Assembly (NCBI RefSeq): GCF_055900595.2
Contig: NZ_CM148325.1
DNA length: 64,000 nt
Reading direction: 5' to 3' (one strand)
A program made the translations under genes and the position numbers. Below are positions 50,616-54,124 of the stretch, one piece after another (the stretch's first letter is position 1; the number at the start of each line of letters is the position of its first letter). A model generated the notes under the pieces. It saw nothing but the letters and a program-made list of their open reading frames with translations, was not told the DNA's origin and did no database searches.

Positions 50616-51023
50616 TTAGTTGCCCAGACCGCGACCGGCGTCTTTCTCTTCGATTAATTCAATTTTGTAACCGTCCGGATCTTCCACAAATGCGATAACC
50701 GTAGTGCCGCCTTTTACCGGACCCGCTTCACGGGTGACGTTACCGCCGTTCTGACGGATTTTTTCGCACGCTTCAGCGGCGTTATCTACGCTAAGCGCGA
50801 TGTGACCATAAGCAGTGCCGAGTTCGTATTTATCCACGCCCCAGTTGTAGGTCAGTTCAATCACCGCTTCTTCGGTTTCCGGGCCATAGCCAACAAACGC
50901 CAGTGAGTATTTGTATTCCGGGTTTTCGCTGGTACGCAGCAGTTTCATGCCCAGTACTTTGGTATAAAAATCGATGGAGCGTTGCAGATCGCCAACGCGC
51001 AGCATGGTATGAAGAAGACGCAT
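50616..51023 (-). CDS. gloA: glyoxalase I / lactoylglutathione lyase (135 aa)
   Basis: [30 protein letters not shown]... recognised. Confidence 0.95.
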
Positions 51024-51103: not shown

Positions 51104-52201
51104 TTACAGCGTCGGGTAATCGGTATAGCCTTCCGCGCCGCCACCGTAGAAACTTTCGGCACGCTGTGGGTTAAGCTCAGCTTTGCGCTGCAAGCGGGCA
51201 ACCAAATCCGGGTTCGCAATCCAGTCACGACCAAATGCCACCGCATCAATCAATCCTTTGCCGATCAACGTTTCGGCTTTTTCTACCGTGTATGCCCCTG
51301 CGCCGATAATCGGACCGTGGAAACGGGCACGTACTTTTTCGCGGAACGCATCAGTATACGGTTCACCTCCCGCCCAATCTGGTTCTGACATATGCAGATA
51401 AGCAATGCCGCGTTTGCCCAGTTGTTCAATCAGATACAGTGCATCGGCTTCTTCATTTGGGCCATTATCCGTGTTCTGGAAAGTACCGATTGGCGAAACA
51501 CGAATGCCAATGCGATCGGCACCCCATTCTTCAATCCCGGCATCGACCACTTCCAGCACCAGACGTGCGCGATTTTCCACGCTGCCGCCGTACTGATCGG
51601 TACGATGGTTTGAAGAAGGAGAAAGGAACTGATGCAGTAAATAACCGTGAGCAGAGTGTAGCTCCACCAGATCAAACCCAGCTTCACGGGCATTAGCGAT
51701 GGCCTGGCGGAAATCATTGACGATGCCCGGAATCTCTTCCCGTTCAAGTGCACGTGGCATGGATGTTTCAACGCGGATCGCCTGACCTTTTTCATCGCGC
51801 AGAGAAGTACGCGTTCCCGCGCTAAGTGCAGAAGGCGCTACCGGTGCCTGACCGCCAGGCTGCAGGCTGGCGTGAGAAATTCGCCCCGTGTGCCACAGCT
51901 GCACGGCCATATGACCATTTTCAGCATGAACGCCAGCGGTGATTTTTTTCCATGCGGCAATTTGCTCCGGACTATGGATGCCAGGCGCGCCTGCATATCC
52001 TTTTGCCTGGGCGGAAATTTGCGTGGCTTCGCTAATAATCAAACCGGCACTGGCTCGTTGGCGATAGTATTCCGCCATCAACGGGGTAGGGATGTCACCC
52101 GGTTCAATACTGCGCAGACGCGTCAGCGGTGCCATAAAAATACGGTTTGCCGCCGTGATCGCGCCCACTTTCAGTGGGGAATACAGTTTTTCAGATGACA
52201 T
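51104..52201 (-). CDS. nemA: N-ethylmaleimide reductase, old-yellow-enzyme family (365 aa)
   Basis: 365-aa OYE-family ORF; nemR-nemA-gloA arrangement. Confidence 0.95.
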
Positions 52202-52237
52202 AAAGGCTCCCGGTGGTCTGGTGATAAAAAATGCCTG

Positions 52238-52837
52238 CTAAACGGCAGGCGTCGCAATAATGGTTTTTACATGGGCCAGCGCGTTTTCCAGTGGCTCGAA
52301 ACTGCGCGAAATTTTGGCCTGCAAATTCGCGCCAAGCCACAGTGCGTAAAGCACTTGTGCCTGTTGCAGCGGTTCGCCACAAAAGGTTAAACAATGGTTC
52401 TCACGGCCATTTTCCAGCGCCTGAGAGAGCAGGGCGATTACGCCGCGAGCCCCTTTATCCATCGCGCTGCGCATATCTTCTGACAGATCGCACACTTCGG
52501 CAGAGAGTTTTACTGTCAGGCAACCACTGATGGTTCCATGTTGGCAAAATTGGTTCAGTGTTTGCTGGTAATAAGCCAGTATGCGGTCGCGGTAGTTACC
52601 TTCGCCGGATTGCAGCAACTCCGTCAGTCGCTGGTGATATGCGGCGTAATGGCGCTCAAGCATGGCAACGCCAAACGCTTCTTTAGAGCGAAAGTAGTGA
52701 TAGAAGGACCCTTTCGGTACTTCAGCAGTTTTTAGTAATTCGCTTAGCCCCATCCCGGTGAATCCACGTTGCAGGCAAAGTTGCTCGCCCGTCGCCAGGA
52801 GATGTTCGCGAGTATCATGTTCGGTGTGTTTGTTCAT
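52238..52837 (-). CDS. nemR: TetR-family electrophile-sensing repressor (199 aa)
   Basis: TetR-type N-terminal HTH; upstream palindromic operator. Confidence 0.9.
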   Translation of the reverse strand: MNKHTEHDTREHLLATGEQLCLQRGFTGMGLSELLKTAEVPKGSFYHYFRSKEAFGVAMLERHYAAYHQRLTELLQSGEGNYRDRILAYYQQTLNQFCQHGTISGCLTVKLSAEVCDLSEDMRSAMDKGARGVIALLSQALENGRENHCLTFCGEPLQQAQVLYALWLGANLQAKISRSFEPLENALAHVKTIIATPAV

Positions 52838-52852
52838 GTGTTGGAGTGTAGT

Positions 52853-52868
52853 AGACCAGTCGGTCTAG
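52853..52868. promoter_or_regulatory. NemR operator, perfect 16-bp palindrome (TAGACCGACTGGTCTA on the minus strand)
   Basis: tagaccagtcggtcta lies 16 bp upstream of the nemR start codon. Confidence 0.8.
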
Positions 52869-52939
52869 TGCAAGTAAAGTTGCTACTTTGGGCATTAACA
52901 GCTTCAATAATGGTAATAATCTTATCTGAGGAGGGCGAG

Positions 52940-53179
52940 GTGGCGGAGCAATTAGAGTTCTTTCCCGTCCAGAGCCCGTGCCGGGGAATTTGCCAGTCTG
53001 ACGAACGCGGATTTTGTCGCGGCTGTTTTCGTAGTCGGGATGAGCGTTTTAACTGGAATAAAATGAGCGATGGCGAAAAACAAGAGGTGCTGCGCCTTTG
53101 TCGGCAGCGATTAATGCGCAAATTACGTGCAAATAAGCCAGCGTCATCAGACGAACCGGAGCAACCATCACTCTTTTGA
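52940..53179 (+). CDS. ydhL: DUF1289-family Cys-rich small protein (79 aa, GTG start)
   Basis: GTG at 52940 preceded by GAGGAGGGCGAG RBS; CRGICQSD...CRGC motif; the longer ORF-track extension overlaps nemR. Confidence 0.7.
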   Translation: MAEQLEFFPVQSPCRGICQSDERGFCRGCFRSRDERFNWNKMSDGEKQEVLRLCRQRLMRKLRANKPASSDEPEQPSLF

Positions 53180-53227
53180 GCATAATCTTGCGTATACTCC
53201 TCTCATATCTGATAAGAGGAAGCGATT

Positions 53228-54124
53228 ATGGTTCAGCGTATTACTATTGCGCCGCAAGGCCCGGAGTTTTCCCGTTTTGTGATGGGCTACTGGCGATTGA
53301 TGGACTGGAATATGTCCGCCCGCCAGCTGGTCAGCTTTATTGAAGAGCATCTGGATCTCGGCGTAACTACCGTGGACCACGCTGATATTTATGGCGGCTA
53401 TCAGTGCGAAGCAGCGTTTGGCGAGGCGCTGAAACTGGCACCTCATCTGCGTGAACGGATGGAAATTGTCAGCAAATGCGGTATCGCGACGACCGCGCGT
53501 GAAGAAAACGTCATTGGTCATTACATTACTGACCGCGATCACATCATTAAGAGCGCCGAACAGTCGCTAATTAATCTTTCGACCGATTATCTGGATCTAC
53601 TGTTAATCCACCGACCAGACCCGTTAATGGATGCCGATGAAGTGGCGGACGCCTTTAAACATCTGCATCAGAGCGGCAAAGTTCGCCATTTTGGCGTATC
53701 GAACTTTACGCCTGCGCAATTTGCGCTGTTGCAATCACGCCTGCCGTTTACCCTTGCCACTAATCAGGTGGAAATATCCCCGGTGCATCAGCCGTTACTG
53801 CTGGATGGCACGCTCGACCAACTGCAACAACTGCGTGTTCGTCCGATGGCGTGGTCTTGCCTTGGTGGTGGTCGTCTGTTTAATGATGATTATTTCCAGC
53901 CTCTGCGTGATGAACTGGCTGTGGTGGCGGAGGAGTTAAACGCGGGCTCTATTGAACAGGTGGTTTACGCCTGGGTTTTACGTTTACCGTCGCAGCCGCT
54001 GCCGATAATCGGCTCCGGTAAAATTGAGCGCGTGCGAGCAGCTGTTGAAGCAGAAACCCTGAAAATGACTCGCCAACAATGGTTCCGTATCCGTAAAGCG
54101 GCACTGGGTTACGACGTACCGTAA
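53228..54124 (+). CDS. ydhF: aldo-keto reductase family oxidoreductase (298 aa)
   Basis: 298-aa AKR-like ORF; synteny. Confidence 0.85.
   Translation: MVQRITIAPQGPEFSRFVMGYWRLMDWNMSARQLVSFIEEHLDLGVTTVDHADIYGGYQCEAAFGEALKLAPHLRERMEIVSKCGIATTAREENVIGHYITDRDHIIKSAEQSLINLSTDYLDLLLIHRPDPLMDADEVADAFKHLHQSGKVRHFGVSNFTPAQFALLQSRLPFTLATNQVEISPVHQPLLLDGTLDQLQQLRVRPMAWSCLGGGRLFNDDYFQPLRDELAVVAEELNAGSIEQVVYAWVLRLPSQPLPIIGSGKIERVRAAVEAETLKMTRQQWFRIRKAALGYDVP

Follow-up and report, generated by a model that had tools for sequence, protein, structure and literature searches.

The 16-bp inverted repeat lying just upstream of nemR in the DNA considered here (the window, i.e., the whole stretch of 64,000 nucleotides that was analysed) is very probably the operator of NemR, at which the bound repressor would block the leaderless nemR-nemA(-gloA) transcript and from which modification of its cysteines would release it. 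The proposal of the earlier note, namely a NemR operator serving the autoregulation of nemR-nemA-gloA, is thus supported by (i) the identity of the adjacent regulator as NemR, (ii) the conservation of the element over 33 loci, (iii) its position in the promoter, and (iv) the literature on NemR repression. The anatomy of the element, its conservation across species, the geometry of the promoter and the linkage to nemR-nemA were established directly in the present analysis; the operator, its regulator, the inducers, the cross-binding of RutR and the leaderless start had all been published already.

On the sequence of the window, the 16-mer tagaccagtcggtcta (TAGACCAGTCGGTCTA), hereafter the NemR box, is located at 52852-52867 (Table 1), one base away from the position 52853-52868 given in the earlier note, which reads AGACCAGTCGGTCTAG. 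It had been described as an exact 16-bp palindrome situated 16 bp upstream of nemR, neither of which holds: its reverse complement, TAGACCGACTGGTCTA, disagrees at positions 7-10 (AGTC vs GACT), and 14 nt lie between it and the nemR ATG (minus strand, 52837-52835), the box occupying positions -30..-15 relative to this ATG with its centre at -22.5. The dyad symmetry of a TetR-family operator (about 15-16 bp) is present in the form of perfect 6-bp arms, TAGACC and GGTCTA, on either side of a non-symmetric 4-bp centre, and these arms lie within a longer imperfect repeat, with 11-nt arms at 52847-52857 and 52862-52872 showing 82% complementarity. The motif TAGACC-N4-GGTCTA occurs only once in the window, and no extra NemR box was found there at two mismatches or fewer, which is uninformative, such a tolerance yielding about one match by chance. 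The 16-mer is the same as in K-12 (1725993-1726008 in U00096.3), and the "NemR box" footprinted by Umezawa et al. in 2008 we take to be this very 16-bp sequence. Elsewhere in the window, the sole true perfect 16-bp palindrome is CCCTGAAATTTCAGGG at 27780-27795, which overlaps the stop codon of the open reading frame 27126..27785 and ends 2 nt ahead of the open reading frame 27798..28517.

Table 1. Position of the NemR box and of the surrounding promoter elements and genes, in window coordinates.
Feature	Position	Strand	Description
NemR box	52852..52867	.	+ strand TAGACC-AGTC-GGTCTA; nemR-coding strand TAGACCGACTGGTCTA
NemR box, arms	52852-52857 and 52862-52867		TAGACC and GGTCTA
NemR box, centre	52858-52861		non-symmetric
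nemR -35 hexamer	52868..52873	-	TTGCAC; abuts the NemR box; TTG invariant in 33 loci
nemR -10 hexamer	52845..52850	-	TACACT; one base downstream of the box; TAnnnT invariant in 33 loci
nemR transcription start site (predicted)	52837	-	A of the ATG; from the published K-12 start site and the identical 35-mer
nemR CDS	52238..52837	-	TetR-family repressor, 199 aa
nemA CDS	51104..52201	-	N-ethylmaleimide reductase, co-transcribed target
gloA CDS	50616..51023	-	glyoxalase I; expressed by read-through from nemRA (PMC3739934)
ydhL promoter	52880..52915	+	-35 TTGCTA 52880-52885, 17-nt spacer, -10 TTCAAT 52903-52908, transcription start site 52915
ydhL Shine-Dalgarno	52928-52934	+	GAGGAGG
ydhL CDS	52940..53179	+	GTG start at 52940, stop at 53179; DUF1289 protein, 79 aa

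Regarding the genes at the locus, the one adjacent to the box encodes NemR and is followed by nemA and gloA, all three on the minus strand, while ydhF lies with ydhL on the plus strand; the gene order is that of the K-12 record and the window is from E. coli. The NemR of the window is identical to K-12 NemR at 198 of 199 residues, the sole substitution being N192T (T192 in the window, N192 in K-12), and matches PDB entry 4YZE, named "HTH-type transcriptional repressor NemR", with an E-value of 2.6e-126; no NemR-DNA co-crystal was found among the PDB sequence matches to NemR. On the divergent side, YdhL is identical to its K-12 counterpart, likewise annotated with a GTG start, which bears out the start codon and the own Shine-Dalgarno sequence previously assigned to ydhL. 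The 102-nt nemR-ydhL intergenic region differs from K-12 by four SNPs, all outside the 35-mer comprising the -35 hexamer, the box and the -10 hexamer (52840-52874), which is itself identical to that of K-12.

Within the species, a 1,051-bp query over the region (52200-53250) finds a match in 5,425 out of 5,426 complete genomes of E. coli, with nemA, nemR, ydhL and ydhF as the annotated genes. Only 12 of these 5,425 genomes are at least 99% identical to the window over that region, the remainder being at 95-99%, so the window comes from an uncommon E. coli lineage. One of the complete assemblies carries the nemR locus on a record typed as plasmid. Of the 5,426 genomes, 5,205 carry an identical 35-mer, another 219 show at most one difference, and two lack it altogether. 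Three natural variants of the 35-mer were sampled: strain ECE218, a urine isolate (locus L084), carries a G-to-T change at 52862 within a box arm (coding strand TAGACA...), and two other E. coli strains carry changes in the nemR -35 hexamer, at 52869 in one (L083) and at 52873 in the other (L085), which also differs at 52843, outside the hexamer.

Conservation across species was considered over 80 loci harbouring relatives of NemR (97-39% identity), with one genome per species and chosen without regard to the DNA box, of which 33 Enterobacterales-type loci with an aligned start codon and a NemR identity of 97-51% entered the profile. The best match to TAGACC-N4-GGTCTA reaches 10-12 of the 12 arm positions in all 33 loci and begins 29-31 nt before the ATG. 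Respective to information content, the arms range from 1.35 to 2.0 bits per position, against at most 0.31 bits further than 7 nt upstream, and the centre is variable and not symmetric (G-A-n-Y); no inverted repeat other than the box is conserved upstream of nemR across the 33 loci. Loci of Serratia, Hafnia and Erwinia with shifted start predictions carry the same box too and, together with the 33 loci, those of Serratia and Hafnia extend its conservation upstream of nemR orthologues over a NemR identity of 97-47%. In some species, e.g., Yersinia thracica and Vogesella oryzae, the box is a perfect palindrome, TAGACCGATCGGTCTA. As for linkage, every box-bearing Enterobacterales locus that extends far enough has nemA downstream of nemR (one locus, L003, ends short), and the box stays with this gene pair irrespective of ydhL, which may be the immediate divergent neighbour, lie some 1.8 kb off or be absent.

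Within the operon of its regulator, the box falls in the core promoter; more precisely, it fills the spacer of the nemR sigma-70 promoter, the 17 bp of which correspond to the 16-bp box plus 1 nt. In the 33-locus profile, the -35 hexamer reads TTGCAt (box positions -6..-2 for its conserved bases), where TTG carries 2.0 bits each and the following C and A are strongly conserved, and the -10 hexamer reads TAcAgT, in which the bases at box positions +18 (T), +19 (A) and +23 (the final T) are invariant. From the end of the -10 hexamer to the ATG there are 7 nt in the window and 6-8 nt across the 33 loci, a distance that predicts transcription to start at or next to the start codon and that, in the window, places the hexamer 7 nt upstream of the published start site. 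In K-12, this site was mapped to 1724047, i.e., the first base of the coding sequence, giving a 5'UTR of 0 supported by 15 reads (Kim et al., 2012; PMC3415461, Table S1), and the list of "Leaderless mRNAs" in the same study (Table S4) includes nemR of E. coli as well as the orthologous ydhM of Klebsiella, the sequence upstream of the latter being TTGCAT-TAGACCAATCGGTCTA-C-TACAGT (PMC3415461). As such, the nemR mRNA is leaderless, the start having been measured in K-12 and Klebsiella and being assigned to the window by sequence identity. A leaderless mRNA explains both the missing Shine-Dalgarno sequence, none being found in the 14 nt CTACACTCCAACAC between the box and the nemR ATG, and the fixed distance from box to ATG.

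A scan of 52760-53000 for consensus sigma-70 promoters and terminators gave no match at a threshold of 9/12, but it was blind to the nemR promoter because its hexamers score 7/12 (TTGCAC 3/6, TACACT 4/6), and the empty result is accordingly no evidence against this promoter. The motif TTGAAG-N16-TAGCAA was considered as an alternative nemR promoter and rejected: its distance to the box varies by species from 31 to 54 nt, it is present only beside ydhL and, read on the other strand, it fits the published ydhL start site. In line with this, only loci with ydhL as the immediate divergent neighbour show the bipartite motif ATTGAAG-N16-nnGCAA, and the published ydhL start site, with a 25-nt 5'UTR (PMC3415461), is equivalent to window position 52915 by homology with K-12. 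A role of the box as an RNA hairpin was rejected as well, since it lies upstream of both mapped start sites, i.e., those of nemR and ydhL. Two further start sites are reported in PMC3415461 (Table S1), namely a weak one 19 nt upstream of nemA (3 reads; K-12 1724664 in U00096.2, about 52220 in the window) and a stronger one inside nemA and assigned to gloA (31 reads; K-12 1725179 in U00096.2, about 51705 in the window), which suggests NemR-independent entries into the operon.

As RutR binds the same 16-mer, which protein acts at the box does not follow from conservation alone. NemR is known to repress nemRA from an inverted-repeat operator that it binds within its promoter (PMC13178969), and NemR modified by electrophiles or HOCl binds the nemRA promoter more weakly, with read-through into gloA (PMC3739934). 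Spontaneous mutations in the nemR promoter suppress the loss of rutE as a nemR null does, and their authors predicted that NemR repression was eliminated; the numbering of the reported derepressing SNP in the nemR promoter, 1,684,163, disagrees with the location of nemR in MG1655 (about 1,724,0xx, U00096.2). In the full text of the literature searched, the 16-mer or the term "NemR box" was found only in the RutR paper (PMC2475637). On this basis, a NemR dimer would recognise the arms TAGACC and GGTCTA, the centres of which are about one helical turn apart, the exact contacts being presumptive. The geometry points to promoter occlusion, in that NemR sitting on the box and filling the 17-bp spacer would exclude RNA polymerase and so repress the leaderless nemR-nemA(-gloA) transcript predicted to start at the A of the nemR ATG. 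Following the binding and release described in the literature, electrophiles or reactive chlorine would then modify the cysteines of NemR, which would leave the box, and the operon would be derepressed.

The element could in principle be an inverted repeat that arose by chance in the spacer of a promoter and is devoid of any protein-binding role, but this explanation is effectively refuted and its probability is practically nil. Perfect 6-N4-6 inverted repeats are common, 23 being present in the window for about 16 expected, so that such a repeat is not unusual per se; promoter spacers are normally without sequence conservation, whereas the 12 arm positions of this one are near-invariant across genera and the neighbouring intergenic positions random. 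It is because of this conservation in both sequence and position across species that the box is regarded as more than chance and, moreover, a TetR-family protein occupies the site in vivo and also binds it in vitro (PMC2475637). It is also quite unlikely that the box constitutes a shared divergent operator through which NemR would control ydhL in addition to its own operon. The nemR and ydhL promoters do stand back-to-back, with 6 bp between their -35 hexamers, a NemR footprint as wide as that of RutR (26-28 nt) would approach the ydhL -35 hexamer, and genomic SELEX counts two NemR peaks and four target genes. However, the ydhL promoter is outside the operator, which ends 12 nt from the ydhL -35 hexamer, i.e., upstream of that promoter and not over it; the box is kept where ydhL is distant or missing, the spacing from box to ydhL promoter differs by more than 20 nt between species, and no report of NemR controlling ydhL was found in the literature searched.

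A further rival reading has RutR as the binding protein, the element being primarily an operator maintained by RutR binding and tying nemRA expression to uracil availability. The K-12 16-mer TAGACCGACTGGTCTA, identical to that of the window, is a RutR ChIP-chip target, one of 20 in vivo, at -22.5 from ydhM (Shimada et al., 2008; PMC2475637, Table 1), is bound by RutR in vitro too and is not among the four RutR targets of low affinity in EMSA. Compared with the RutR consensus TTGACCAnnTGGTCAA, the box matches 11 of 14 positions, including the key bases A4 and T13, and the base contacts of RutR centre on the ACC/GGT core that the box has in common; in addition, loss of nemR suppresses the rutE defect, so the pathways are functionally connected. 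Against these points, the conserved consensus TAGACC...GGTCTA deviates in all species from that of RutR at positions 2, 7 and 15, none of the orthologous loci has the box uncoupled from nemR, and NemR and RutR are similar only in the HTH, with about 40% identity over 40 residues. Furthermore, most RutR targets show little or no effect at the transcript level (PMC2475637), and a review citing the primary work describes RutR binding upstream of nemRA-gloA as without a role in regulation, which altogether makes a primarily RutR-dedicated operator very improbable. An intermediate situation, in which the box is a two-regulator site where RutR modulates nemRA-gloA expression or NemR access under some condition, is considered unlikely.

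The operator of NemR, as the box is best read, can be set beside several known systems. That of nemRA-gloA in K-12 (Umezawa et al., 2008; Gray et al., 2013; Lee et al., 2013) has the same 16-mer, 35-mer and gene order, autoregulation by a Cys-modified TetR repressor is alike and no functional difference from the window appears. The RutR box (Shimada et al., 2008; Nguyen Le Minh et al., 2010) is likewise 16 bp long, with a GACC-N4-GGTC core and a TetR-family dimer, but differs from the NemR box at the three positions given above, and RutR at nemR has no reported regulatory effect. AltR of Pantoea ananatis (PMC13178969) is a NemR-related thiol-sensing TetR repressor whose inverted-repeat operator overlaps its own core promoter; this operator, CAATCTAC-N6-GTAGATTG, nevertheless overlaps the -10 hexamer and an RBS, whereas the nemR transcript is leaderless and without RBS.

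Further away, most of the distant NemR-like TetR genes (39-49% identity) are preceded by a 15-bp site, TAGAC-N5-GTCTA, typically TAGACGACYGGTCTA, in hosts such as Burkholderia, Bordetella, Thauera, Photobacterium, Pseudomonas and others (loci L039-L081); in L072, for instance, the match starts at 2501 and the site precedes it by about 37 nt. These sites share with the NemR box the outer half-site bases TAGAC/GTCTA and the place just upstream of the regulator gene but are one base pair shorter, and both the orthology of the regulators and their binding are only putative. Most of these loci are without an adjacent close nemA orthologue, while a few have a 46-64% match nearby.

What is added here consists of corrected coordinates and symmetry, along with a 33-locus view of an operator exactly filling the spacer of a leaderless nemR promoter, attention to RutR as a published binder of this site, and a set of rare natural variants in E. 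coli isolates. The significance is mainly one of annotation, the box being a textbook-type autoregulatory operator of a well-studied operon of the response to electrophile and bleach stress. Were the box a genuine two-regulator site, it would couple pyrimidine degradation to electrophile detoxification, and a candidate condition for an effect of RutR would be active pyrimidine catabolism by the Rut pathway, with toxic intermediates removable by NemA. As for the rare operator and -35 variants found in E. coli, they could shift the basal expression of nemRA-gloA, even as far as constitutive derepression.
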